Assembly (NCBI GenBank): GCA_037305845.1
Contig: CP147778.1
Coordinates: forward strand, 2,944,001-3,008,000
DNA: 64,000 nucleotides
Direction: 5' to 3'
Source: Candidatus Freyarchaeum deiterrae
GTDB lineage: Archaea; Asgardarchaeota; Jordiarchaeia; Jordiarchaeales; Jordiarchaeaceae
This document shows positions 4,635-33,683 of the stretch, one piece after another. The position numbers and the translations under genes were made by a program. Within the stretch, counting starts at the first letter, position 1; each line of letters opens with the position of its first letter. The notes below the pieces were generated by a model. It was not told the DNA's origin. It worked only from the letters and a program-made list of their open reading frames with translations, and did no database searches.

Positions 4635-4728
4635 ATAGATTAGTCTTGAAATTTTTTTAAGGCTAACCCATTTAAAAGCCTAACCATCGAGGCATTTTGG
4701 ATTTGCTTTTTAGAAATTATTTGCTAAT

Positions 4729-5976
4729 TTACAAATCTTTCTTGGAAAGCTTTCTAGTGAATATTCCCTTCTCGATTATCAAGATTTGAGTGATTATTAT
4801 CATTATAACAAGTATTCCACTAAAAACCCAGAAGATGGATTCGAAACCAAAGTAAGAAGTTATGAGCACCCCCAGCATGGGACCAATGCTGTAACCCATA
4901 GTGTACGCGATGTTGAAGAGACCAGAAGCGGTTCCAAAGCTTTCCATTTTTTTACTCCTCAAGGAGTCCACCGCCAGGGGCATCAGTGGGGAAAAGGCCA
5001 AAGCCCAGAAGATTCCTGTAATCCCTAGTATTAGGAAAAGTAAGGGGACACTGGAAGCATAAGGAATTAATGGACTCAGTACACTTAAAGCCACAAGCCC
5101 GCTTACAATAAACACTTTTCTTCCATACCTGTCAGACAGCCTGCCCACAATAGGCTGGAAAACAGCAAATGTTAGAAAAGCCACCCCGAAAAATAATCCA
5201 ATCTCCGAACTGGGCATAAAAAATCTTCCATGCAAGTAGGGCGGCATAAGAGGCTCGGTGAATCCAAAAAATATTGCTATCATACTGTTAATACCCACAA
5301 CTATCAAAACATTCCTAACTCTGGTGGCTCTCCCCAGCATTTTCCGGTAAGGGATAGACGCTTCCACAGGTTCCTTTTTCGCTAAATGCAACCTAGCAAT
5401 CATATAGAGAGCTGCTGCTAGAGCTATGGAACCCAAAATGAAGAATGGTAAACCAAAATTGATGCCCCCCAAAATTCCGCCCACAACCGGTCCGGCAACG
5501 CTGCCCATACCAACGGCTCCGTTCGCAATACCCAGCTTTTCACCCTTATCACTTCCCGGATAGGTATCCGCTACAAGAGCCAAGGCGGAAGACCAAGTCG
5601 CAGAAGCAGCCAACCCCTGAACCGCTCTGCAAGCTACCAATGTCAAGACGCTCTTAGCGAAGGGATAATACAGGAAAGAAGCTGCCAGCAGAATCATTCC
5701 CACTATCATGAATCTTCTCCGCCCATATCTATCCGAAAGCAACCCGAAGGGTATCGTAGTAATGAGCTGTACTATTGCAAACGCGGAAAAAATCAGAGCT
5801 AGATCAAAATCCGAGGCACCCAGAGATAAGACGTATGTTGAAAGAATCGGAACCACTATTCCGTAACCAGTGGAATCTACAAAAAGACTTAGAAATGCGA
5901 CTCCCAAAATTTCTCTAGCTGAAGTAGTTGAAGTCACCCTGAGTTTCAAAGAATCCTCACCATAACCTTCCAGCAC
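4729..5976 (-). CDS. MFS transporter (DHA1/SLC18-like), paralog 3
   Basis: GLLSDRYGRR, RAVQGLAASATWSSALALVADTYP. Confidence 0.9.
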   Translation of the reverse strand: MLEGYGEDSLKLRVTSTTSAREILGVAFLSLFVDSTGYGIVVPILSTYVLSLGASDFDLALIFSAFAIVQLITTIPFGLLSDRYGRRRFMIVGMILLAASFLYYPFAKSVLTLVACRAVQGLAASATWSSALALVADTYPGSDKGEKLGIANGAVGMGSVAGPVVGGILGGINFGLPFFILGSIALAAALYMIARLHLAKKEPVEASIPYRKMLGRATRVRNVLIVVGINSMIAIFFGFTEPLMPPYLHGRFFMPSSEIGLFFGVAFLTFAVFQPIVGRLSDRYGRKVFIVSGLVALSVLSPLIPYASSVPLLFLILGITGIFWALAFSPLMPLAVDSLRSKKMESFGTASGLFNIAYTMGYSIGPMLGVLITSYFGFESIFWVFSGILVIMIIITQILIIEKGIFTRKLSKKDL

Positions 5977-10498: not shown

Positions 10499-11290
10499 CT
10501 ACTTCTTTTTCCCTAAAAATGCTTTTGCCCGTTCTATGTGTTCATCTGTTTGGAAGCATATCGCCTGCATGGTCATTTCGTAATCCAATGCTTCTCTCAA
10601 GCTCGTTGTCATGGCCTTGTTAATCGTTTTTTTGGCTGCTCCAACTGCTCTGGGTGGCAAATCAGCCAGTATCTTAGCATATTCTTTAACTGTGGACATT
10701 AAATCTCCTTCTGGAACCACCTTGTTGACCATTCCGAGTTGCTCCGCCTCCTTCGCTGGTACCAGCTTACCCATAAGAATGATCTCTTTGGCTTTCTGGA
10801 ATCCAACCAGCCTGGGCAGGAGCCAGCTTCCTCCACCGTCGGGTACCAGTCCAATGTGAATAAAAACCTCTCCGAACCTCGCATTTTCTGAGGCTATAAT
10901 GAAGTCGCAAGCTAAAGCCCAGTTGCAAGCGGCGCCCGCCGCCGCACCATTAACCGCTGCAATAATAGGTTTTTCGATATTCCAAATTCGATTGGTTACC
11001 TCCGATGTATAGTAGTACAAGGCTTGTCTTAGCTGCAGCTGGTCTGCTTGATAAAACTCTTTCATGCCTTCGATGTCTCCGCCGGCGCTAAATGCTTTGC
11101 CTGCTCCTGTTAAAATTATAACTTTGACATCATCATCCATACTCAGAGCATCTAATGCTTCTCTCATTTCCTCTTGCATCTCACGATTTAAGGCGTTCAA
11201 CTTTTCAGGGCGATTCATCGTTATGGTGGCGATACCGTTTTCCTTTTCAACAATAATATACTGGTAAGAAATAAATCTCACACTCCTCAC
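10499..11290 (-). CDS. Enoyl-CoA hydratase/isomerase (crotonase family)
   Basis: NRPEKLNAL, AFSAGGDI, KPIIAAVNGAAAGA, IGLVPDGGG. Confidence 0.93.
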   Translation of the reverse strand: MRSVRFISYQYIIVEKENGIATITMNRPEKLNALNREMQEEMREALDALSMDDDVKVIILTGAGKAFSAGGDIEGMKEFYQADQLQLRQALYYYTSEVTNRIWNIEKPIIAAVNGAAAGAACNWALACDFIIASENARFGEVFIHIGLVPDGGGSWLLPRLVGFQKAKEIILMGKLVPAKEAEQLGMVNKVVPEGDLMSTVKEYAKILADLPPRAVGAAKKTINKAMTTSLREALDYEMTMQAICFQTDEHIERAKAFLGKKK

Positions 11291-11410
11291 GGACTTTAAA
11301 ATAATTTCAAATTAAAAAATTAAAGATAATCTACTTCTTTTATAACTTTCCATAAAAAGTTTGCTAGAAAAGAAAATAGAGAAATGTAATAAAAAATTAA
11401 AACTGATATC

Positions 11411-12205
11411 TTATTTTCCTATGGACACTCCTTGTGGGTCGAGCTCATGGAGTATCCTGACTTCTTCCCTAGTAGGTACAGGTGTTGTTTCAAGGTCATC
11501 TGCGATTAGCAACTCGAAGCCGCAATTCTCCTTTATCTGCTCCAGCGTGACACCGGGGTGTATGGATATCAGTCTCATTCTCTTGGTTTCTTTGTCGAAA
11601 TCGTATATTCCTAGTTGTGTTATTACTCTGTATGGGCCGGATCCTTCGGGTAATCCTGCTTTCTCTCTTGCCCCTGGTCCGGTGAGGTAACCTGGTGTTG
11701 TTATGAAGTCAACCTTCTTTACAAAGGTTCTCGGTACCTGGTTTCTCATTACGTAAATAGTTCTATTTGATAGTGAGCCGATATCATTCGCTCCACCACT
11801 TCCTGGGAAGCGCACACTTGGAGCATCATGATCTCCGATGCATGTGGTGTTCAGGTTTCCGTACATGTCTATCTGTGCTCCGCCAAGAAAACCGTAATCA
11901 ATGTAGCCCGCTTGGCAGGCTGACATGACATCGTGCATGCTTGAGGCTCCTATCGCTTTATAGAATGTTCTTGAGTCTCCCACGGAAATGGGTAAAGTTG
12001 GTATTTGGGGCCCCATGCCTCCAGCTTCGAAAATAATCAGCAGGTTAGGAGCGTGTGTTTTTTGGGCAAGCATAGTCGCAATCATTGGTAAACCGGTTCC
12101 CACGAAAACGGATTTTTTATCTTCAAGTACTTTGGATGCTGCAACTGCTAGGAGTTCACCCATTGTGTATTTGTGTTCTCCACTAATTTTGTGTAATTCA
12201 CTCAT
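11411..12205 (-). CDS. Family I CoA-transferase beta subunit (glutaconate/3-oxoacid type)
   Basis: FVGTGLP, IFEAG, GFLGGAQIDMYGNLN, PGSGGANDI, SIHPGV. Confidence 0.9.
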   Translation of the reverse strand: MSELHKISGEHKYTMGELLAVAASKVLEDKKSVFVGTGLPMIATMLAQKTHAPNLLIIFEAGGMGPQIPTLPISVGDSRTFYKAIGASSMHDVMSACQAGYIDYGFLGGAQIDMYGNLNTTCIGDHDAPSVRFPGSGGANDIGSLSNRTIYVMRNQVPRTFVKKVDFITTPGYLTGPGAREKAGLPEGSGPYRVITQLGIYDFDKETKRMRLISIHPGVTLEQIKENCGFELLIADDLETTPVPTREEVRILHELDPQGVSIGK

Positions 12206-12215
12206 TGACCTCACC

Positions 12216-13256
12216 TCACTTTTTACGCCAGGGCGCTACCATAGGTGCTCTTAACTGTTCGACTTTCCTAAGGTAGTTTAGTTTCTTCACTCCGCCTACC
12301 ACGCTTAGATATTCTTCGAAGTCCTCGGTGCCGAATACATACTTGTCGAGATATTGTGTTATGCCTTCGTCTGTCTTCGAGAGTTCAAGCCACTCAGCGA
12401 TTTGTTCTTCATCAAAGAAGTACAGGTAGGGCATTTCGCAGGGGTGGGAACCGAAGGGGACTTCACAAACCGCGTCGACACAGTAGAACGGAATTGAAGT
12501 GCGCCACGGCTCGTTTCTAATTCTCTCCTCTGGAATTATTTCCTCTGTCGTTATTATCAGTCTTCTTGCGGCTCTTGAGAGTTCGAAATCCTCAATTATT
12601 ATGCCGTCGATTTGGGCGTTACCATATTTGTCGCATCTGGGTACGTGGATGAAAACCACGTCCGGATTGCATGAGGGAATTAGACATATTGGTTTACCGC
12701 TGAAAGGATCTTCCACCACTATGGCGGAGCTGTAGTTAAATGTATCAGTACCCACGAGGTTTCTTGAAGGGATAAAAGGTACTCCCATCATTCCACCTAG
12801 AAAACGCCACTGATAACCAGCATTACTTATTTCACCGGTGATTTTGCATTTTCCTGTCTCAGCCATTCTTCTCGATGCTGGGGATAAGCCTCTCAGCTCG
12901 TGTGCAAACGAGTAAGCAATCTCCGCTTTGTTAACCGCACCGGAGCCCATAAGAATGTCTAAATCGTGAACAGCTGTCTTTCCTGCCATTGTTAGGTTCT
13001 TTTTCTTCTGTCTTACTATCTCATAAACTACAGACATGGCGACTCTAATGTGGCCGAAACCGCCTGAGGCGATGAAACTTCCGTCTTTGACATATTTTGA
13101 AACTGCTTCCTTCACCGTCATTGTTTTGTCTTCTAGGTCTCTGGTTTTGTTTTCTCTAATCCACTTTCGATGCTCATCTGGGTCGTGCCAACCTATTAGT
13201 TCGCCTTTCCCTTTAGCTAAAATTTTTAATTCCTTTTCAATTTTTAGTTTCGTCAA
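12216..13256 (-). CDS. Family I CoA-transferase alpha subunit
   Basis: EAVSKYVKDG..IASGGF, GVPFIP, PDV.FIHV..CDKYGN, PFGSHP; adjacent to the beta subunit. Confidence 0.9.
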   Translation of the reverse strand: MTKLKIEKELKILAKGKGELIGWHDPDEHRKWIRENKTRDLEDKTMTVKEAVSKYVKDGSFIASGGFGHIRVAMSVVYEIVRQKKKNLTMAGKTAVHDLDILMGSGAVNKAEIAYSFAHELRGLSPASRRMAETGKCKITGEISNAGYQWRFLGGMMGVPFIPSRNLVGTDTFNYSSAIVVEDPFSGKPICLIPSCNPDVVFIHVPRCDKYGNAQIDGIIIEDFELSRAARRLIITTEEIIPEERIRNEPWRTSIPFYCVDAVCEVPFGSHPCEMPYLYFFDEEQIAEWLELSKTDEGITQYLDKYVFGTEDFEEYLSVVGGVKKLNYLRKVEQLRAPMVAPWRKK

Positions 13257-25103: not shown

Positions 25104-26375
25104 GTGTTTTTGTCCTTAGAGGAGTTGGCTCTTAATTATCATAGAAATAATACCCCCGGCAATGGTAAATTCGAAGTCATTGCAAAGACGCCTGTGAGAA
25201 ACCTAAAAGATCTGGCTCTTGCTTATACTCCCGGAGTCGCCGAACCCTCAAGAGTGATAAGTAAAGACTTATCCAAGATTTACGATTTCACAGTTAAGGG
25301 AAACCTTGTAGCGGTTGTTTCAGACGGTACATCTGTTTTAGGATTGGGAAACATCGGGCCTTACGCGGCTGTACCCGTGATGGAAGGAAAAGCAATTCTT
25401 TTTAAGATGCTTGCAGGTGTGGACGCCTTCCCCATCTGTTTAGCAACAAAAGACCCGAGTGGAGTAGTTGAAGCAGTCAAAGCTATTGCGCCGGTCTTTG
25501 GAGGAGTAAATCTTGAAGACATTGGGGCCCCCTCATGCTTTGAGGTTGAATCACGATTAAAAAAAGAGCTGGATATTCCTGTCCTTCATGACGACCAGCA
25601 TGGAACCGCAGTAGTAGTTCTGGCGGGTTTAACAAACGCTCTAAAGGTTGTCGACAAAAAAATGGACGAAGTTCAAGTCGTGATTAATGGAGCCGGCGCA
25701 GCGGGTCTGACGGTGTCAAAGTTTCTATTGAAAGCCGGAGTAAAAGATTTGAGCCTGTGCGATAGTCAGGGAGCAATCTACGAGGGCAGAACTCAAAACA
25801 TGAATCCTTACAAGGAAGAAATCGCGCGTATCACGAATAAAAAGAGAATCGAGGGAAAACTATCAGACCTGATGAAAGACGCTGATGTATTTATCGGACT
25901 CTCTGTCGCGGGGATTGTTACTCGACAAATGGTGGAATCGATGGCAGACGACCCAATTGTTTTCGCAATGGCTAATCCAGTGCCTGAGATAATGCCCGAC
26001 GAAGCCTTAGAGGGTGGAGCAAAAGTCGTGGCAACCGGTAGATCAGATTTCCCAAATCAAATAAACAACGTACTAGGATTTCCCGGAATCTTTAGAGGAG
26101 CACTCGATGTGCGGGCTTCAGACATAAATGAAGAAATGAAAATAGCCGCAGCTCACGCCATAGCATCACTCGTTCCGGAGGAGAAGCTTTCAGAAAAATA
26201 CATAATCACCAGTCCCCTAGACCCGCGAGTTATGCCCGAGGAAGCCGCAGCGGTAGCCGAAGCAGCCATGAAAAGCGGAGTGGCTAGAACAAAAATAAAC
26301 CCCAGAGAAGTAGCAGAGCACACCAGAAAACTTGTTAATCTACAAAAGAAAAGAACACCCAAACTGTTCCCTTAA
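25104..26375 (+). CDS. NAD(P)-dependent malic enzyme
   Basis: AYTPGVA, VMEGKAILFK, NLEDI, HDDQHGT, GAGAAG, NNVLGFPG. Confidence 0.95.
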   Translation: MFLSLEELALNYHRNNTPGNGKFEVIAKTPVRNLKDLALAYTPGVAEPSRVISKDLSKIYDFTVKGNLVAVVSDGTSVLGLGNIGPYAAVPVMEGKAILFKMLAGVDAFPICLATKDPSGVVEAVKAIAPVFGGVNLEDIGAPSCFEVESRLKKELDIPVLHDDQHGTAVVVLAGLTNALKVVDKKMDEVQVVINGAGAAGLTVSKFLLKAGVKDLSLCDSQGAIYEGRTQNMNPYKEEIARITNKKRIEGKLSDLMKDADVFIGLSVAGIVTRQMVESMADDPIVFAMANPVPEIMPDEALEGGAKVVATGRSDFPNQINNVLGFPGIFRGALDVRASDINEEMKIAAAHAIASLVPEEKLSEKYIITSPLDPRVMPEEAAAVAEAAMKSGVARTKINPREVAEHTRKLVNLQKKRTPKLFP

Positions 26376-26591
26376 CCATTCTAAATTTTAACAATATTTC
26401 ATTATTTACTCAGCAATAGTTAGTCAAATTTTTCTAGCACATATATCCATTCCCAACTAAACAATTGGCACATAAATAGTGAATTTACGAAAAAAACCAG
26501 ATGCAAACTCAATCCCTGCAACTTTTCAACTCGCATTTTATCTTAAATTAAGATTAAAAAAAGAAGATTTTTTGATGAATTTTTCACGATT

Positions 26592-26756
26592 CTATCCTTT
26601 ATATTCTTCGAACATATCCTTTGCTGCTCCGCAAACCGGACAAGTCCAGTCTGCTGGAAGGACTTCAAAGGCTGTTCCGGGTGGTATGCCTTTCTCCGGG
26701 TCTCCTACATCTGGGTCATAAATATATCCACAAACTGTACATTGCCACTTCTGCAT
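26592..26756 (-). CDS. Rubredoxin 1 (54 aa; below the ORF-track cutoff)
   Basis: [54 protein letters not shown]; AGGAGG RBS. Confidence 0.95.
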
Positions 26757-26971
26757 CCCTTTTCCTCCTTTTATAACTCTTTTCAGAATTTTTAATTGAA
26801 ATTAAGAAGAAGAATAAAAATATATTTCTTTCGTTAAGATTTTTAAAAAGGCAGTGAGTATATATAGATACATCATTCATGGAGAGATAGCCACTTTATC
26901 TTTGTGGCTTGTAAGCCGAGTCTTGTCTCATCAAATTAAAAGAGAGTATTTTTTGCACTTGTTTTTTGACT

Positions 26972-27136
26972 CTACTCTTCCAGGGGTTCAAACATATCTT
27001 TTGGTACTCCACAGACCGGGCATACCCAGTCATCTGGGAGGTCTTCAAAAGTGGTTCCCGGTGGAACGCCTCCGTCCGGGTCTCCTACATTTGGATCATA
27101 AATATATCCGCAGGATGTGCATTGCCATTTCTGCAT
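26972..27136 (-). CDS. Rubredoxin 2 (54 aa; below the ORF-track cutoff)
   Basis: [54 protein letters not shown]; GGAGG RBS. Confidence 0.95.
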
Positions 27137-27573
27137 CACATTTTTCCTCCATCAATTTTTGACACTCAGTTCTTTTATACCAGATTTCTTTATATAATTT
27201 ATCGTTAAATTCTTCCCATTTTTCAATGGGTCGTCTTTTTACAAGAAACATACCGTGCGTTTATGGCTATTTCTTAATTTATCAAATTCATAAATATTGT
27301 GTTGAGTCTCTTTTCTTCAACTAAAAATTCCTTATAAATTCGTTTTTGAATACACTAATGTAATACACATCATTGTTTTTTAAGTGTCCTAAAACTGGGA
27401 ATTTTGGATTTTTTTCTACAAATTGATTGTCCAAAAATCTCTTAATCTCAATGTTGCAATTTTTGAAAATTAAAAATGTATTCAACAGTTTTTTATAAAT
27501 ATAAAATAATATTCTTTAGCGTCTTTAGCTAATTACAAAATATTTAACATCATTAAAATAACACAACCAGTGC

Positions 27574-27725
27574 ATTCTATTAATGAAAGTCACCGAAAAA
27601 AAGCAGTCAATGTCTCCATGAAAGAAGAGATTTTATCAGTATTCACCTCAGCTAATCTGAGAGGCAGAATAAATGCTATGTCCGACTTCTGCGAACCTGA
27701 AAAATTCGTTGTCGACCAGGGTTGA
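27574..27725 (+). pseudogene. Frameshifted relic of the C-terminal half of the ~117-aa repeat domain found at 48626-53840
   Basis: Reads ILLMKVTEK, then after a 1-nt shift in an A-run AVNVSMKEEILSVFTSANLRGRINAMSDFCEPEK, matching FLMKVTEK...INLRGRINALSDFYNLEK. Confidence 0.75.
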
Positions 27726-27854
27726 AAGTTAGAAGATGGAATCCACTAACTTGAAATGTTTATTGGATAAGCAAACTCTAAGCGTTTTTATAAAAAAGAT
27801 TTAGTAAAAAAAGGGAACTATTTTTTTTCCATTTTTTTTAAACGGAAAAATCAT

Positions 27855-28064
27855 TTAAAATCTGGACTCTCTTCTTTGATAAGATCTTTTCGGTCGCTTT
27901 TTCTGGTAGCATTCTCGACAGTAAACCGGTCTAACGCCGTCTGGTTTGAATGGAACCTGAGTTTCCTTACCACAATCGGCGCAGGTTACAGTGTGCATCT
28001 CTCGAGGTGGACGTTCTCCACGTCCTCTTCTGTCCTGTCCAGAATCTTCGTCGTCTTCGCTCAT
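27855..28064 (-). CDS. CxxC-x17-CxxC zinc-ribbon protein (putative nucleic-acid binding)
   Basis: REMHTVTCADCGKETQVPFKPDGVRPVYCRECY; AAGGAGG RBS before the ATG at 28064. Confidence 0.92.
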   Translation of the reverse strand: MSEDDEDSGQDRRGRGERPPREMHTVTCADCGKETQVPFKPDGVRPVYCRECYQKKRPKRSYQRRESRF

Positions 28065-28545
28065 ATTAATCCTCCTTGTCAGTATTAGGAACTCTTTTTT
28101 TAGAAAAAGAGCCACTGTCTGAAGTAAAACACTAAGAATATATAAACTGTATCCCTTCGCGCACAATTTTATGTCGATACGAAGGTTTAAACTTGATTTT
28201 TCCCCAAAACCTATTGGTTTTTGAAAAACTCCGTTATTTACAAAGAGATTTCTGGAGTATTTCCTAATTGCTATTAGGGTGTCTCTATTCCTAAATATAA
28301 TATGTTACAAATCACTATAATATATTTTCATTCACACTCAATTATTTAATTTACAAATTGAATTTTATAGATTATTTTTTGTTTATAATTATTGGGCGCG
28401 TTTTACATGAAGTTTCGGAAAAAAAAGGTCTTTTTGCAGAAAATTTTAATCTTTTGTTTATTTTTGCACACATATTTATTAGTGTTACATGTTTCTATTT
28501 TTCTAAGTTAATTTTGGATAAAGGGATGAGAGGTTTACACATACC

Positions 28546-28809
28546 ATGACAGATAAAGCATTTCAAACGATTTGCTCATTAAAAAATGGAGTTTGTGAAA
28601 AAACTCGAATAATAATTAATTTCGAGAAAAACGCCGCAACCATTAATCCGGAGAAATGCCTTGAATGTCCACTTTTAGAGGAAAAGGTAAGAAGATCGGT
28701 AATAATACTTTCTGGTTCTCCTATGACTGAGCTGTACAAAAAAATGCCCACATTTATAATAGGCTTTGATTTACAAATTCCTAAGAGAACCATAGAAACG
28801 GAACAGTAA
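28546..28809 (+). CDS. Small hypothetical protein (four Cys)
   Basis: GAGAGG RBS; ICS..GVC...CLEC. Confidence 0.5.
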   Translation: MTDKAFQTICSLKNGVCEKTRIIINFEKNAATINPEKCLECPLLEEKVRRSVIILSGSPMTELYKKMPTFIIGFDLQIPKRTIETEQ

Positions 28810-28932
28810 CTAATAGACCATCATGAAAAAAGTCTAAACAAACATCTTCAATATTCGAAACTCGGAAACTTACTTACTATGAGATTCTTGGGGAGTGGGT
28901 ACTAGAACAATTTCACAAAATTATATTTGGGA

Positions 28933-29748
28933 TTAAAATTTCACGTCCTTTTTGAGAATGGCCGTTTTTTTAGCGCAGGTTTTGAGCAGTGTTTTTGTTC
29001 CGCCTGCCTGGCTCACGATTTGTAGCATTTTTTGGGTATCGTAAATTTTTACTCCCATCACTGCTGTGGCACCTCTTCTAAATAGGGGTTGAGGAACGAA
29101 GCTAGCCGTGGGCCCCAGGAGCACCACTTCACGCTCCTCCGCACAGTTTTTTAGTATGTTGCCCACTGATCGATTAACTAATGTACTCCCGGTGATTATC
29201 GCGATATCGGCTTTGGAGCTCAGTTTCTTGAGCTGTGTTTCTTTGACAACCTTAACCATTGGGTTTTGAATATCTATTCTCTCTATAACTGTTATATCTG
29301 ATGTTTTTTCCATTAGTTTGGGGATTACCGGAGCCATGTATCCCACCATTAAAATTTTGTCTCCGGATTGGACTAGGTCTAATACATCTACTTCTGTGAA
29401 AGGGTAGAGGTGCGGCTTTTTATTGAAGGCGATTTGTGAAACAGCGTTAATAGTTGCGACGCCTATAGCTGCCGTTACTAGGTCTGGGGAAGTTGCTAGG
29501 TTCATCATGTCCCTAGCTTTTGAGTTTTGCAATTCTCCAGACTTTTCAATAATCTTACAATCAGAGGAATCTTCTCTAAGAACGTGTGCTAATCCTCCTT
29601 CTCCAGTTGAGAGCACGACTCCTGCATACTCAAGCCCTATTCTTAAATCGCTAACCAAGACTTCTTCTAGATGCGGAGCTAACTCATTTTCCAAATAGTT
29701 AATTAAACTCTTTGCAGAGTCCATAGATAAAAACTTCCAAACAATCAC
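28933..29748 (-). CDS. DUF364 family Rossmann-like protein
   Basis: IGVATINA, MVGYM.P, IITGSTLVN, LLGPTAS. Confidence 0.88.
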   Translation of the reverse strand: MIVWKFLSMDSAKSLINYLENELAPHLEEVLVSDLRIGLEYAGVVLSTGEGGLAHVLREDSSDCKIIEKSGELQNSKARDMMNLATSPDLVTAAIGVATINAVSQIAFNKKPHLYPFTEVDVLDLVQSGDKILMVGYMAPVIPKLMEKTSDITVIERIDIQNPMVKVVKETQLKKLSSKADIAIITGSTLVNRSVGNILKNCAEEREVVLLGPTASFVPQPLFRRGATAVMGVKIYDTQKMLQIVSQAGGTKTLLKTCAKKTAILKKDVKF

Positions 29749-29823: not shown

Positions 29824-31437
29824 TTAGCCGAGTGCCCCTCTAATTTTTCCCGCGTATAAAATTAGTTTCTGGGCGATTTCGACCATTTCCTCTCCTTGGA
29901 TAATGTCAAAGAGTCCCTCTTTTTTGATGTCTCCCTTTGAAAGAGTGCGTGCTGAGAGATAGTCCGATATCATTTTAACAACTATTTCATAGGATGGATC
30001 GAGATTTGCGTCCAGATTGATGAACTCTTTAATTTGTCTAAGGTCCTCTTTTACTTGCTCGGTGATTCTTTTTGGTAGTACTTTTTGCGAAGCGTCAATA
30101 CATAGAAAACGAGAGGCGTATTTCAGGGAGTCTTTTAGAGAAGAGCAATAGACGTCCAATAGTTTTTCCAAGGCTTCGCTCTTCCATTCATTAACCGCAT
30201 TTAATCCCCTACCGGTTCCAATGAATTCGGGGGGGAGGCCTATACTGTAAAGTGTGGCTGTGAAGGGAATAGCTTCCACTGGGGGTTCAATTTTGAGATT
30301 CTCCATTTTGAGAAGCTGCTTGGATACTTCTTTGTCTGTGCACATTTTTGCCAGCTGTGTTATCATTGTTTGACAAGATTGGTGGTTTGTGTTTTGAGAG
30401 CTTGTTGGCTGGTCTCGTCTTGGGGGAACGAGTTCAAATATTCTAGTATCGAGTAGAATTTCGTAGAGGCTTTCGTAGTAATTGGCTGTGAATATGCCAA
30501 TTATGTTTATGATTTCACTTTTATCTTTTTTTGAGAAGGTTTGTGGTTTTTGAGATTGTAGTTTATCTTTCAGTAGAAAAATCATCTTTTGAGCGTCTCT
30601 TCTATCAATATCATGTCTTATACTTGAGGGAATTGTTATTGTTCTTATTCCTGAATAATCGTTTAAAATTTTGTCGAGATTTTCGGGATTAACGAATCCT
30701 CTGAATGGTAGAGAACCTGCGTTTAATATGGGAAATGTGTGAGTGCTGAGTTCTTCATCAATTGTTGCAAGATCCGATACCGCAATTTTACTAGCGAGTG
30801 TTGATGGTACGAGTCCGCAGTGAACTGCGCAGTCGGATCTCCCGAGAAGTATTCTCAAATAGTCTAAAGGATTCCTAGAGGAGGAATATACTTTGAGATA
30901 TTCTGAAATAATATTTGAAGTGTTTAATAAGGACGGCAGATCCTTGATATTTGGAATAATTTGAACATCTTTGAGTTTAGCTGCTGCGTCTATCGTTTCC
31001 AAAATGTAATTTTTAAGTATGTTGAAACTCATTTCGATGCGTGCGAGTTCCATAGGCGGCTCTGTCAAGGGGAGGATGACCTCATAGATTGCCCCTCCAT
31101 TAGTTTCGTTTCTTAACATGTAATTTACTTCAATGATTTTTTGGAATATGGCCATCCTTCTGAAACCATGCTCATAATTACCAAATGGAACACTTGGTGT
31201 AATGTTAATATTAAAACTAGGGGTTAACCCCTTATCCATTAATCTCTTAACTACCTTCTCTATTTGTTGAAAAGGAGTCATTTTCTCTGAGAAGTCTATA
31301 ACAAGTTCCTCTGCTCCAACCCCTCCTTCTTCCTTCGAGGACAAGCAGTCAATTGCCTCATCTATCTCCTTGTCAAAACTAATGTAAGCGGTGGCAGAGC
31401 TCGAATCTTGAGTTGCCATAGTGGCTGGAATGCGCAT
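29824..31437 (-). CDS. ppcA: Archaeal-type phosphoenolpyruvate carboxylase homolog with degenerate active site
   Basis: IPATMATQ, GRSD, GSLPFRG, YSGIRT.T, FTATLYSIGLPPEFIGTGR, C-terminal GKIRGALG; catalytic TQHP and PRAI motifs are altered. Confidence 0.85.
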   Translation of the reverse strand: MRIPATMATQDSSSATAYISFDKEIDEAIDCLSSKEEGGVGAEELVIDFSEKMTPFQQIEKVVKRLMDKGLTPSFNINITPSVPFGNYEHGFRRMAIFQKIIEVNYMLRNETNGGAIYEVILPLTEPPMELARIEMSFNILKNYILETIDAAAKLKDVQIIPNIKDLPSLLNTSNIISEYLKVYSSSRNPLDYLRILLGRSDCAVHCGLVPSTLASKIAVSDLATIDEELSTHTFPILNAGSLPFRGFVNPENLDKILNDYSGIRTITIPSSIRHDIDRRDAQKMIFLLKDKLQSQKPQTFSKKDKSEIINIIGIFTANYYESLYEILLDTRIFELVPPRRDQPTSSQNTNHQSCQTMITQLAKMCTDKEVSKQLLKMENLKIEPPVEAIPFTATLYSIGLPPEFIGTGRGLNAVNEWKSEALEKLLDVYCSSLKDSLKYASRFLCIDASQKVLPKRITEQVKEDLRQIKEFINLDANLDPSYEIVVKMISDYLSARTLSKGDIKKEGLFDIIQGEEMVEIAQKLILYAGKIRGALG

Positions 31438-31662
31438 ACAGAAGCCCCTTTTAACCTCTTATATCCTAACTTTTTTGTACTCCTCGTTAATAATTACCGT
31501 ATATTAACAAAAAAACTTTACCTTAGGAAAACAGTTACAATAATTGAACATAATTAATTCTAATCCTTAAAATTAATCCATACACAATGCGTAACATTCC
31601 TAATTTATCTTTCCTTTTCACAGGGATACCTGTTTAAAAAACGACTGCAACGGTGTAATACC

Positions 31663-32124
31663 ATGTCTGAGGTCTGTATAAGGGAGTATAAAGTTGAGGA
31701 CGGGGATGATGTGGAAGAGCTTTTCCGTTTCCATACTGAAAAACACCTACGGAAAACCACCTCCTTCTTTTACAAAAAGGCTTTGGACGGAAAGCCGCCT
31801 GATAACGTAATAGCGGTAGTAGCAGTTTTTAAAGACAGAGTTATTGGCTTTAGTGGAGTTCAAATAGTTAGTAGCACAGTAACCAATCATCCGGTCACAA
31901 TAGTTCACAAAGATTTTAGAAGCAGAGGAATAGGCAAAATGCTTATGAGGAAAAAATTGGAAATAGCACAAAAGAAAGGGCTTCGGGAGTATAACTCAAT
32001 AGTAGGGAAAGAAAATTTAACCTCTCGCAGAATGCTGGAGGGACTAGAAAATTTTGCAATTTCTGACGAAGGGGAATATGATAAAAATAAGAACTGGTTA
32101 AAATACAGGAAAAAGCTTGACTGA
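31663..32124 (+). CDS. GNAT family N-acetyltransferase
   Basis: VHKDFRSRGIGKMLM acetyl-CoA motif; N..S..ML. Confidence 0.88.
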   Translation: MSEVCIREYKVEDGDDVEELFRFHTEKHLRKTTSFFYKKALDGKPPDNVIAVVAVFKDRVIGFSGVQIVSSTVTNHPVTIVHKDFRSRGIGKMLMRKKLEIAQKKGLREYNSIVGKENLTSRRMLEGLENFAISDEGEYDKNKNWLKYRKKLD

Positions 32125-32240: not shown

Positions 32241-33119
32241 ATGGTAACACGATTGGTTGAAAAAGTTGAAGCTTCCAGCCTTCTTAATGAAGGTAAAGAA
32301 TACCTTAAAAAAGAAGATTACAAAAAAGCCGAAAATAAATTTCAGGAAGCCTTAAACCAATTCTCAAAAGAAAATAATTTGAATGGTGTCGCCGAATCAG
32401 AAACATATCTAGGAGTAGTTTTGCAGAATCAAAACAAGTTGTCGAAGGCAAAAGAGCACTTTGAAAAAGCTCTCAAACTCCACGAAGACTTGGATTATAA
32501 ACAAGGAATTTCCAGAGTCTACACTAACTTGGGTAATCTTACCCTAGTAATGTCCAAAGATTTCGATAAGGCTCTTGAACTTCATCAAAAAGCTCTAGAT
32601 ATTTCAAAAAAAGCCCGAGACGATGCAGGAAGGTCAAGAGTTCTGACGAATATTGGCTATGTTCAATTTAGACAGCAAAAGTTAGAAGAAGCATTAGAAA
32701 CACTTAAAGAGGCTTTAGAACTAGCTAACAAAGCCGGTCATGAGCTCACCCAAGCGACTGCACTGTCCAATATGGGAATAATACTTTTTGATATGAAACG
32801 ATACGAGGAAGCTCTTGAAAAGCACGAGGAAGTAGCAAAAATATTCGAAAAATGGGGAAACAAAAAAAGGTTAGCAATAGAACACAGACAGATGGGGTTT
32901 ATACTAGAAAAACTGAATCGCTTCAACGAGGCAGAGGAGCACTACAAGGCTGCAGAGAAACTCTACGGAGAAGTCGGATTGAAAAAAGAGAAGAAAACGA
33001 TGAAATCCATGTCGAAGGCTTCGAAGACCCGTATGAGAAAATGTCCGTCATGCGGTACAATCATCCTATTGCCCAAGTTGAAGTACTGCCCTAATTGCAA
33101 CAAAGACTTGAAAACCTGA
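32241..33119 (+). CDS. Tetratricopeptide-repeat protein with C-terminal zinc ribbon
   Basis: ~40-aa TPR repeats (NLG..Y...A.E.H.KAL); CPSCG...YCPNC. Confidence 0.88.
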   Translation: MVTRLVEKVEASSLLNEGKEYLKKEDYKKAENKFQEALNQFSKENNLNGVAESETYLGVVLQNQNKLSKAKEHFEKALKLHEDLDYKQGISRVYTNLGNLTLVMSKDFDKALELHQKALDISKKARDDAGRSRVLTNIGYVQFRQQKLEEALETLKEALELANKAGHELTQATALSNMGIILFDMKRYEEALEKHEEVAKIFEKWGNKKRLAIEHRQMGFILEKLNRFNEAEEHYKAAEKLYGEVGLKKEKKTMKSMSKASKTRMRKCPSCGTIILLPKLKYCPNCNKDLKT

Positions 33120-33266: not shown

Positions 33267-33683
33267 ATGAGTTCTTCAAACGCTAGTGAAAAAACTCCAA
33301 GAATCGCGGTTGATGCAATAATACTCAAGGATGATTGTGTGGTTTTAATAAAACGAAAGAATCCCCCCTTTCAAGGCCATTACGCTCTTCCTGGAGGCTT
33401 TGTAGAAATCGGAGAATTTGTTGAGGAGGCTGTAGTGAGAGAGGCGAAGGAAGAAACGGGACTGGATGTTCAGGTGGAACGCTTCTCAGGAATCTATGAT
33501 AATCCAAAACGTGATCCCCGAGGACATGTTATAAGCATAGCATACCTTTGTAAGGTAGTAGGTGGGGAGCTCAAAGCGGGCTCAGATGCTAAGGACGCAA
33601 GTTGGATACTGGTAAAAGAAATTAAAAAAATAAAATTAGCCTTTGACCACGCACAGATACTCGCAAACGCGGGAATAGTCTAG
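33267..33683 (+). CDS. NUDIX hydrolase (ADP-ribose pyrophosphatase-like)
   Basis: GGFVEIGE..EEAVVREAKEETG, RDPRGH, LAFDH. Confidence 0.93.
   Translation: MSSSNASEKTPRIAVDAIILKDDCVVLIKRKNPPFQGHYALPGGFVEIGEFVEEAVVREAKEETGLDVQVERFSGIYDNPKRDPRGHVISIAYLCKVVGGELKAGSDAKDASWILVKEIKKIKLAFDHAQILANAGIV

Follow-up and report, generated by a model that had tools for sequence, protein, structure and literature searches.

The window, by which we mean the whole 64,000-nucleotide stretch of DNA analysed here, contains an intact reading frame of 537 residues whose product, P0001, had been singled out in a sequence-only reading as a homologue of archaeal-type phosphoenolpyruvate (PEP) carboxylase, PepcA. The frame is present as described and lies on the minus strand, which that reading had not named (Table 1). 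Directly downstream is the gene for a DUF4213/DUF364 protein, P0121, and beyond a putative promoter region on the other side lie genes for a GNAT acetyltransferase, a TPR protein and a NUDIX hydrolase. A homologue of the TPR gene occupies the same relative position in 6/6 relatives' loci (29–69% identity), and the NUDIX gene (56–80% identity), for which NCBIfam gave sub-threshold matches to NadM-Nudix, has the same position in both lineages compared. Of the loci compared, the two from the same genus have the GNAT gene and the Jordarchaeum-type ones lack it. A malic enzyme had also been reported about 3.5 kb from the PepcA-like gene; it is indeed there (25104..26375, 3.45 kb away), and a functional link to it was rejected because the synteny is restricted to the genus. 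An Rfam search of the low-GC spacer at 26.3–29.0 kb found nothing, and neither PEP carboxylase (PEPC) nor DUF364 has a gene-level entry in the supplements of the Freyarchaeia paper.

Table 1. Features of the PepcA-like locus, in coordinates of the window
Feature	Position	Strand	Basis and remarks
DUF4213 + DUF364 gene, P0121	28933..29748; likely true start ATG 29724	minus	PF04016 127 bits, PF13938 60 bits
PepcA-like gene, P0001, 537 aa	29824..31437	minus	ORF, PF14010, TIGR02751, 3ODM match; a catalytically degenerate archaeal-type PEP carboxylase paralogue
Codons for residues 133-147 (helix), candidate new interaction surface	30997..31041	minus	Clade-specific invariance
Divergent intergenic region upstream of PepcA-like gene, putative promoter region	31438..31662		A/T-rich; purine-rich AAGAGGT before ATG
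GNAT acetyltransferase	31663..32124	plus	PF00583; inserted in block, this genus only
TPR protein, C-terminal zinc ribbon	32241..33119	plus	Pfam TPR + zf-ChsH2; part of class-wide four-gene block
NUDIX hydrolase (ADP-ribose pyrophosphatase-like)	33267..33683	plus	PF00293 84 bits; part of conserved block

P0001 is a full-length member of the PepcA family. It scored 260 bits against PF14010 (cut-off 25), covering profile positions 1–493 of 493, and 262 bits against the 'equivalog' model TIGR02751 (cut-off 146). The collinearity with PepcA claimed earlier was borne out, residues 1–537 aligning to the Clostridium perfringens enzyme 3ODM (E 1e-84), which has the same length and is 30% identical. The AF2 model of P0001 (pLDDT 91, pTM 0.92) has the PepcA TIM-barrel fold, superposing on 3ODM in Foldseek with a TM-score of 0.91–0.94 (~0.92) and an rmsd of 2.3–2.6 Å. 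A search of the ESM Atlas with PEPC families excluded returned no usable match, and Pfam found neither DUF364 nor any other domain fused in the best-hit proteins longer than 600 residues (P0145, P0172 and P0173). Phylogenetically, P0001 falls in a divergent clade confined to Jordarchaeia, comprising the window's genus and a sister subclade from Jordarchaeum-type genomes. The two subclades group together (SH-aLRT 98–99), and their sister is a canonical Odinarchaeia protein, P0123 (SH-aLRT 100). On this tree the divergent clade is of single, old origin.

We compared the clade with 55 PepcAs, among which 66 columns are conserved in at least 88% of sequences. The divergent clade has lost 15/66 of these near-invariant columns (H11, P12, E50, G74, R82, M124, L163, E165, G239, Q270, R343, Y352, R354, P387 and R388), and P0001 taken alone retains 49/66. 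All six motif replacements listed by the sequence-only reading (TQHPD to TQDSS, DFEGK to DFSEK, TPRIP to TPSVP, IPLxED to IPNIKD, TxQSA to TIPSS and PRAI to VEAI) were found in the alignment, at positions that are nearly invariant in ~110 diverse canonical PepcAs and each 93–100% conserved in the 55 comparison sequences; changes of this kind lie far beyond chance. To that list we can add G74, G239, R343 of the RDR motif, Y352 and R354. The motifs RSD, GSLPFRG, GLPPE and RGALG are retained as had been stated, although describing them as structural does not suit RSD and LPFRG, which hold catalytic residues.

The PepcA profile could be aligned with Escherichia coli and maize PEPC (hmmsearch, hhalign) over β4–β7 only. 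Within this region E165 aligns with the E. coli metal ligand E506 in both HMMER and hhalign, D202 of RSD with the metal ligand D543, and R246 of LPFRG with the loop arginine R587. Of the metal-ligand pair, P0001 retains D202 and has Lys for E165, a position occupied by Lys, Arg or Gly across the divergent clade. The catalytic His of TQHPD, present in 98% of the 55 sequences, is D11 in P0001; we take H11 of PepcA to be the presumed equivalent of E. coli H138, from its invariance and the literature. Four arginines that are each 95–100% conserved in canonical sequences are also replaced (R82 by Ser, R343 by Gln, R354 by Ser and R388 by Glu), and across the clade the PRAI Arg position holds Gly, Glu, Lys, Ala or Asn. 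The arginines of TPR, RDR, GYxR and PRAI presumably bind the phosphate of PEP; for PepcA residues besides E165, D202 and R246, the roles given here are presumed from conservation. In E. coli PEPC, catalytic importance is reported for His138 and R587 (PMC11832675). The equivalent of R587 in the Gly-rich loop, R246, is retained in P0001.

The sister subclade shares 12 of the losses, the catalytic His and the PRAI Arg among them, and has lost D202, the equivalent of D543. The window's genus and the sister subclade have thus lost opposite metal ligands, so there is no metal site common to the family.

The search for a second, canonical ppcA that had been proposed located one in the same genome, 527 kb away and scoring 631 bits, and a canonical PepcA also accompanies the divergent copy in each relative examined. 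This paralogue belongs to a different PepcA subfamily, on the opposite side of the tree, and is ~26–28% identical to P0001. Canonical PepcA also occurs in many Asgard genomes that have no divergent copy. For the divergent copy, dN/dS was 0.04–0.10 in the window's genus and 0.10–0.11 in the sister subclade, and that of the canonical paralogue in the same genomes was 0.08–0.13; purifying selection on the divergent copy is as strong as on the canonical one. The value near 1 that had been put forward as the sign of decay was therefore not seen.

P0121 contains both DUF364-family domains above threshold, is the only DUF364 match in the window's genome, matches 3NPG (E 8e-11) and has a dN/dS of 0.14–0.16. 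The next gene downstream of the PepcA-like one encodes a DUF364 protein in 10/10 Jordarchaeia genomes and also on 9 public contigs. The two genes are 4–19 bp apart in Jordarchaeum-type genomes; in the window's genus the gap is 75–160 nt and contains a T-run, so that here they may be transcribed separately. No DUF364 gene was found beside canonical PepcA at 20 Asgard loci or at 3 metagenome PepcA loci with flanks, the metagenome scan with P0123 as query having yielded relatives at 30–46% only. Between P0121 and three unpaired Asgard homologues 43 positions are invariant, among them Gly, Asn and Glu in the motifs aligned to 3NPG, which we read as those named in PMC2954201, and on this basis the DUF364 protein looks intact. 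Five residues are specific to the PepcA-paired copies in a comparison with these three unpaired homologues only. Close DUF364 homologues in other Asgard lineages have no PepcA-like neighbour. The adjacency could nonetheless reflect an inherited gene order, since conservation extends to the TPR and NUDIX genes on the far side of the PepcA-like gene.

Eighty-seven columns are invariant across the divergent clade. Of these, 22 are clade-specific, and eight of the 22 fall on one helix (residues 128–149 of the AF2 model): R133, E135, N139, I140, K142, N143, Y144 and E147 are invariant in 16/16 divergent sequences, even though identity between the two subclades is only about 35%, and present in 15% or fewer of canonical PepcAs.

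P0001 thus combines lost catalytic residues with purifying selection and an active-looking paralogue in the same genome. The sequence-only reading had called it a candidate pseudoenzyme, and the label holds: P0001 is a full-length homologue with a dismantled PEP-carboxylating site, a dN/dS of 0.04–0.10 and a canonical ppcA elsewhere in the genome. From its residues we infer that P0001 probably lacks any catalysis. The catalytic loss, the strong conservation and the constant DUF364 neighbour together point to a repurposed protein, and with middling confidence we regard P0001 as a PepcA-derived pseudoenzyme that is most likely a non-catalytic partner of the DUF364 enzyme. An ancestor of Jordarchaeia had a PepcA of ~530 residues, the closest surviving canonical relative of which is in Odinarchaeia. 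The PEP-carboxylating site of that PepcA was dismantled, and the enzymatic work stayed with a second, canonical PepcA. The residues lost were His in β1, Glu in β2, Gln in β8 and the arginines R343, R354 and that of PRAI, and after them, according to lineage, either of the two Mg2+ ligands; the TIM-barrel fold has stayed intact under strong purifying selection. The old active site would then have been free of selection, its positions varying more than the average column, and selection would have shifted to the fold and to new surfaces, in particular the invariant helix 133–147. P0001 would most likely now act as a scaffold, regulator or ligand-presenting module of the downstream DUF4213/DUF364 enzyme, which belongs to a family of adenosyl/SAM-binding Rossmann enzymes for which genome context suggests a part in metal or cofactor handling.

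That the protein is instead a retooled enzyme is rather unlikely, if still a serious contender. The barrel, with a partial anion pocket, would carry out a new reaction whose substrate is an oxyanion such as a carboxylate or phosphate, in a pathway common with DUF364 that might, for instance, produce or load a metal-chelating compound or a cofactor. D48, K52, R195, R341 and R533 are invariant in both subclades and R246 is kept in all but one sequence (Lys), so these charged residues may still form a ligand-binding or even a catalytic pocket, and in the window's genus D202 is retained and D11, S82 and P270 are fixed. The strong purifying selection and the operon-like pairing with an intact-looking DUF364 enzyme would suit such a reaction too, as would the finding that DUF364 acts on SAM derivatives (PMC12930334) and its location elsewhere beside Mo transport or NifX-like genes. 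However, the replaced positions 50, 163, 165, 343, 352 and 388 have not been re-fixed, being variable within the genus clade and different between the subclades, and the different metal ligands kept by the subclades leave no common metal-dependent chemistry apparent. Mean entropy in the genus clade was 1.02 for lost columns against 0.55 for ordinary columns (resampling p = 0.003), a contrast that is partly circular since variable columns are easier to score as lost. Moreover, the ends of the β-strands show no new conserved cluster, the new constraint lying on a helix that should point outwards from a TIM barrel.

The sequence-only reading had suggested a role such as a regulatory subunit, a metabolite sensor or a partner of an active PepcA. 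That P0001 regulates or co-assembles with the active PepcA, or senses PEP, aspartate or malate in anaplerosis, we consider improbable. PepcA is a tetramer, plants have mixed PEPC complexes (PMC8100219), the dead copy is always accompanied in its genome by a canonical PepcA and a malic enzyme is close by; yet the two paralogues, ~26–28% identical and on opposite sides of the tree, are unlikely to share oligomer interfaces, and their genes are 527 kb apart. Nor is the malic enzyme neighbourhood conserved beyond the genus, many Asgard genomes have canonical PepcA without a dead copy, and the conserved neighbour is DUF364 rather than a gene of central carbon metabolism. It is very hard to credit that P0001 is still a PEP carboxylase through compensating residues: its score exceeds the TIGR02751 equivalog cut-off and D202, R246 and the C-terminal RGALG are retained, but the conserved His, the conserved arginines and one metal ligand are all gone, their replacements are variable and non-conservative (Lys, Arg or Gly for Glu, for instance), and a canonical copy is present in the same genome. 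The loss of many catalytic residues might also mark a pseudogene before its first stops, a reading that we rejected as having next to no chance given frames without stops in any divergent copy and intact in 10/10 genomes of two families (32–37% identity between families), a dN/dS of about 0.04–0.11, the 87 clade-invariant columns and a fold predicted with high confidence.

Returning to the pseudoenzyme partner of DUF364, a stronger version, which we think unlikely, makes the dead PepcA barrel of Jordarchaeia an obligate component of the DUF364 enzyme, in a complex that makes or loads a metal-binding metabolite or cofactor. The barrel could provide a pocket for binding oxyanions or carboxylates, or serve as the TIM barrel onto which DUF364 docks with its enolase-N-like cap domain, and Jordarchaeia, as organisms rich in tungsten- and molybdenum-dependent enzymes, would be possible users of the product. 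If true, this would offer a first way into the function of archaeal DUF364. The DUF364 family is large and had no reported biochemical function until 2026, and a conserved, testable PepcA-like partner could help to define what its archaeal members do.

NCBI, JGI and TIGR02751 all label P0001 phosphoenolpyruvate carboxylase, judged on its residues almost certainly a misannotation, and metabolic reconstructions of Jordarchaeia or Freyarchaeia that follow the label would count as PEPC a protein that in all likelihood is not one. We found no PEPC pseudoenzyme in the literature searched. The Jordarchaeia clade is a clean case: a homologue has a solved structure, the same cell carries an active paralogue, purifying selection is strong and the gene partner is fixed. 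It does not stand alone, as PepcA has become catalytically degenerate in at least two other lineages elsewhere, represented by the full-length PF14010 proteins P0184 and P0209 (of which P0209 is named Woesearchaeota) and P0162. Like P0001, these have lost the catalytic His and show several Arg and metal-ligand changes; their replacement patterns differ from those of the P0001 clade. Their separate places in the tree argue for independent origins, P0162 being on a very long branch and of unsure placement. At least three origins of dead PepcA-like proteins (Jordarchaeia, the Woesearchaeota-containing lineage and P0162) would point to recurrent non-enzymatic use of the fold, and current family models do not reflect several independent degenerate PepcA lineages.

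Compared with archaeal-type PEPC (atPEPC; 3ODM), P0001 has D202, R246, the PPE motif and the C-terminal RGALG, but is without the β1 His, β2 Glu, β3 Arg, β5 Glu (a metal ligand), β8 Gln, the second Arg of RDR and the Arg of GYxR and PRAI, positions that are now variable, and its clade has a conserved helix of its own and the constant DUF364 pairing. The nearest active-looking relative, the Odinarchaeia PepcA P0123 (about 532 residues, 38–39% identity), retains 66/66 conserved columns, unlike P0001. In plants, class-2 PEPC hetero-octamers mix plant-type (PTPC) and bacterial-type (BTPC) subunits (PMC8100219), and there, too, the main enzyme has kept a divergent second paralogue at its side. Plant BTPC, however, belongs to the long bacterial/plant PEPC family rather than to PepcA, and its partner is a PEPC, whereas the genomic partner in Jordarchaeia is DUF364. 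The bacterial-type subunit of plants is, in addition, catalytically active. The DUF364 family includes Dhaf4260 (PDB 3L5O), 3NPG and the Streptomyces methyl-SAM cyclase Orf5, and P0121 has both Pfam domains of this family. A PepcA-like neighbour of DUF364 appears neither in the context analysis of PMC2954201 nor in the M. maripaludis study or the other papers examined that mention DUF364. Elsewhere DUF364 genes are found with Mo/W/Fe transporters, NifX-like genes and natural-product gene clusters; in Jordarchaeia the companion is a PepcA-like gene.

The gene for P0001, a 537-aa protein related to archaeal-type PEP carboxylase (PepcA), is uninterrupted (see table), and its product has the length and fold of PepcA, since it matched Pfam PEPcase_2 over the entire model (260 bits) and the NCBIfam equivalog for archaeal-type PEP carboxylase at 262 bits (cut-off 146), aligned end to end and collinearly with the Clostridium perfringens PepcA structure 3ODM (E 1e-84) and gave a confident AlphaFold2 model (input alignment of 71 sequences; pLDDT 91, pTM 0.92) that superposed on 3ODM with a TM-score of 0.91-0.94. 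The sequence-only reading had described just such an intact, full-length homologue, with altered catalytic motifs. We tabulated ten motifs across about 150 PepcA-family proteins. TQHPD, D(F/Y)EGK, TPR, IPLxE, (R/K)SD, LPFRG, TxQS, PRAI, PPE and a C-terminal R-x-x-L-G are near-exceptionless in around 110 diverse canonical proteins; P0001 reads TQDSS, DFSEK, TPSVP, IPNIKD, GRSDCA, GSLPFRG, TIPSS, PVEAI, GLPPE and RGALG, bearing out against the canonical set the changes previously listed (TQDSS, DFSEK, TPSVP, IPNIKD, TIPSS, VEAI). In a combined alignment, 66 columns were conserved in ≥88% of 55 comparison sequences, and the P0001 clade has lost 15 of these (H11, P12, E50, G74, R82, M124, L163, E165, G239, Q270, R343, Y352, R354, P387 and R388). 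Of the 66, P0001 itself keeps 49, the canonical copy in its genome 59 and its closest canonical relative every one. In the P0001 model the lost residues lie at the C-terminal end, or just past it, of barrel strands β1, β2, β3, β4, β5 and β8 (six of eight), with one more, G239, on β7.

Features of the window around the PepcA-like gene
Feature	Position	Strand	Remarks
PepcA-like gene (P0001), 537 aa	29824..31437	minus	uninterrupted; ORF and profile matches
DUF4213 + DUF364 gene (P0121)	28933..29748	minus	probable ATG 29724; directly downstream of P0001 gene
Small Cys-rich ORF, 87 aa	28546-28809	+	convergent with DUF364 gene; C-x2-C pair, five Cys
Treble-clef zinc-finger gene, 103 aa	27855..28166	minus	lone gene in low-GC stretch
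Low-GC stretch	26400-28930		between malic enzyme and DUF364 gene; few ORFs; GC 32-34% versus ~40%
Malic enzyme, 423 aa	25104-26375	+	

Two methods, hmmsearch (1FIY, E 3e-4) and hhalign (probability 87%), aligned a canonical-PepcA profile with E. coli Ppc. Both alignments equate PepcA E165 and D202 with E. coli E506 and D543, the two Mn2+/Mg2+ ligands in 1JQN, and PepcA R246 with R587 of the GRGGxxGRGG loop. They stop short of the N-terminal His, and we presume that H11 corresponds to H138 from its 98% conservation and the literature. For E. coli PEPC, catalytic importance is reported for His138 and R587 (PMC11832675, citing Terada & Izui 1991 and Yano 1995). On this mapping P0001 has lost the His and one metal ligand and retained the second ligand together with the loop Arg. 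RSD, GSLPFRG and the other motifs earlier called structural are indeed retained, but the label does not suit two of them, which are catalytic remnants (D202 = D543, R246 = R587). Together the replacements show a PepcA homologue that should be incapable of normal PEP carboxylase function.

P0001 has eight close cluster representatives (71-86% identity), after which identity drops to 36%. Among 1.84 billion cluster representatives searched with a profile, only two were of the divergent type; the next match, P0123, labelled Odinarchaeia, is fully canonical and was itself matched at E ≤ 1e-60, among 400 Asgard genomes, by only two families of one order. Divergent and canonical copies occur together in all five genomes of the window's genus, and all five of the second, Jordarchaeum-type family carry a full-length relative (32-37% identical) plus their own canonical copy. 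In maximum-likelihood trees these two subclades form one clade on long branches (SH-aLRT 98-99), with the Odinarchaeia protein as sister (SH-aLRT 100). The canonical PepcAs that these genomes also encode fall in the opposite half of the PepcA tree, so P0001 is not a recent duplicate but an old paralogue, derived from another PepcA subfamily. Twelve losses are common to both subclades (H11, P12, E50, G74, M124, L163, G239, Q270, R343, Y352, R354 and R388). The window's clade has additionally lost R82 and E165 and retains S201 and D202; in the Jordarchaeum-type clade R82 (4/5) and an acidic residue at 165 persist, and S201, D202 and R274 are gone. That each lineage dropped a different metal ligand argues that metal-dependent chemistry was already dispensable in their common ancestor.

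The PepcA-like/DUF364 pair was found in 10 of 10 genomes and on nine public contigs. Searches of 20 canonical Asgard PepcA loci and three metagenome loci with flanks turned up no DUF364 gene, and P0121 is encoded by the sole copy detected in the genome. The intergenic gap is 4-19 bp in Jordarchaeum-type genomes and 75-160 nt, with an internal T-run, in the window's genus, which makes co-transcription less certain there. On the opposite flank, genes for a TPR/zinc-ribbon protein and a NUDIX protein are likewise conserved in both families, so the adjacency may in part be inherited synteny. Other Asgard lineages have DUF364 homologues that are just as close (42-45% identity) and have no PepcA-like gene beside them; in two of three such genomes a NifX-like (PF02579) gene adjoins the homologue. 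The DUF364 protein looks functional, judging from 43 invariant positions that it shares with the unpaired homologues and a dN/dS of 0.14-0.16.

Several further observations concern these loci. The low-GC stretch gave no Rfam match at E ≤ 0.1. The Cys-rich ORF has no Pfam match and recurs, at 60-65% identity, in that position in two genomes of the genus; an unrelated convergent ORF of 71-79 aa occupies its place at Jordarchaeum-type loci. The malic enzyme has an 82% identical counterpart in another genome of the genus, ~6 kb from the pair there, and none at the locus of the sister family. At Jordarchaeum-type locus L035 (genome G006; 4675-5493 and 11035-12816) the conserved block extends to genes for a MobA-like NTP transferase and HypD, with NAD synthase and short-chain dehydrogenase genes nearby; none of these four was found next to the pair in the window. 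At L046 (2351-3241) and L047 (2326-3252), from Asgard genomes G036 and G053, which have no PepcA-like gene there, the DUF364 homologue lies downstream of the NifX-like Nitro_FeMo-Co (PF02579) gene and of a 109/110-aa ORF; one of these ORFs was scanned, without a Pfam match.

Selection has maintained the divergent gene. Its dN/dS (Nei-Gojobori) is 0.04-0.10 across five genus genomes, versus 0.08-0.13 for the canonical gene, and 0.10-0.11 among Jordarchaeum-type copies, counting pairs with unsaturated dS. Values of 0.04-0.11 are far from neutral decay and no copy contains a stop codon, so the gene is not decaying. P0001 represents a protein type that is under selection, confined to Jordarchaeia, accompanied by a canonical enzyme and fixed beside DUF364.

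What is conserved within it bears on its role. Mean entropy in the genus clade is 1.02 for the 15 lost columns (27% of them invariant), 0.18 for the 51 retained canonical columns and 0.55 for ordinary columns (lost versus ordinary, p = 0.003, resampling test), so most former active-site positions, D11, S82, L124 and P270 in this clade excepted, have not been re-fixed into a new constellation. By contrast, at 22 columns all 16 divergent sequences agree on a residue found in <30% of canonical ones, and eight of these columns (R133, E135, N139, I140, K142, N143, Y144 and E147) lie on one helix, which looks like a newly constrained surface. Together these two results favour a role that rests on the fold and its surfaces and not on catalysis. 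Our preferred reading, to which we give an even chance, is that P0001 would be a non-catalytic partner of the DUF364 protein. The main rival, a retooled enzyme of the same pathway as DUF364, could draw on the charged residues left in the pocket (D48, K52, R195, R246, R341 and R533), which may still bind a ligand; given the variability of the other lost columns, we judge it possible, if rather unlikely. The earlier proposal that P0001 regulates or partners an active PepcA finds a candidate in a second PF14010 gene (631 bits, every canonical motif present) on the single 3,576,204-bp contig of the genome, which encodes no long bacterial/plant-type PEPC, but that gene lies 527 kb away and we consider the proposal improbable.

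For the favoured DUF364 partner, published accounts describe enolase-N-like and Rossmann-like domains with an adenosyl-type binding pocket, and genome contexts in which Mo, W and Fe transport is prominent (PMC2954201). The Methanococcus maripaludis member lies within a modABC operon cofit with nifH (bioRxiv 2024.03.05.583561), and the family's first reported biochemical function, cyclisation of a methyl-SAM to a methylazetidine carboxylate, is described in PMC12930334. The passages on DUF364 in these three sources mention no PepcA-like neighbour, nor does any of 13 papers naming DUF364 point to one.

Altered active sites also occur elsewhere in the PepcA family. A subgroup comprising P0100, P0101, P0104, P0088, P0098 and P0134, with one Bathyarchaeota-labelled member, retains the His and has Met/Leu for the EGK Glu and Glu for D202, with E165 replaced by Gly and PRAI by PPRW in some members; its active site may be partly altered. 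Three cluster representatives, P0184, P0209 (labelled Woesearchaeota) and P0162, are PF14010 members of full length that lack the catalytic His and also differ at several Arg and metal-ligand positions. P0184 and P0209 form their own clade and P0162 sits elsewhere in the tree on a very long branch, separate positions which, with that of the P0001 clade, suggest that PEPC chemistry has been lost within an intact PepcA fold at least three times.
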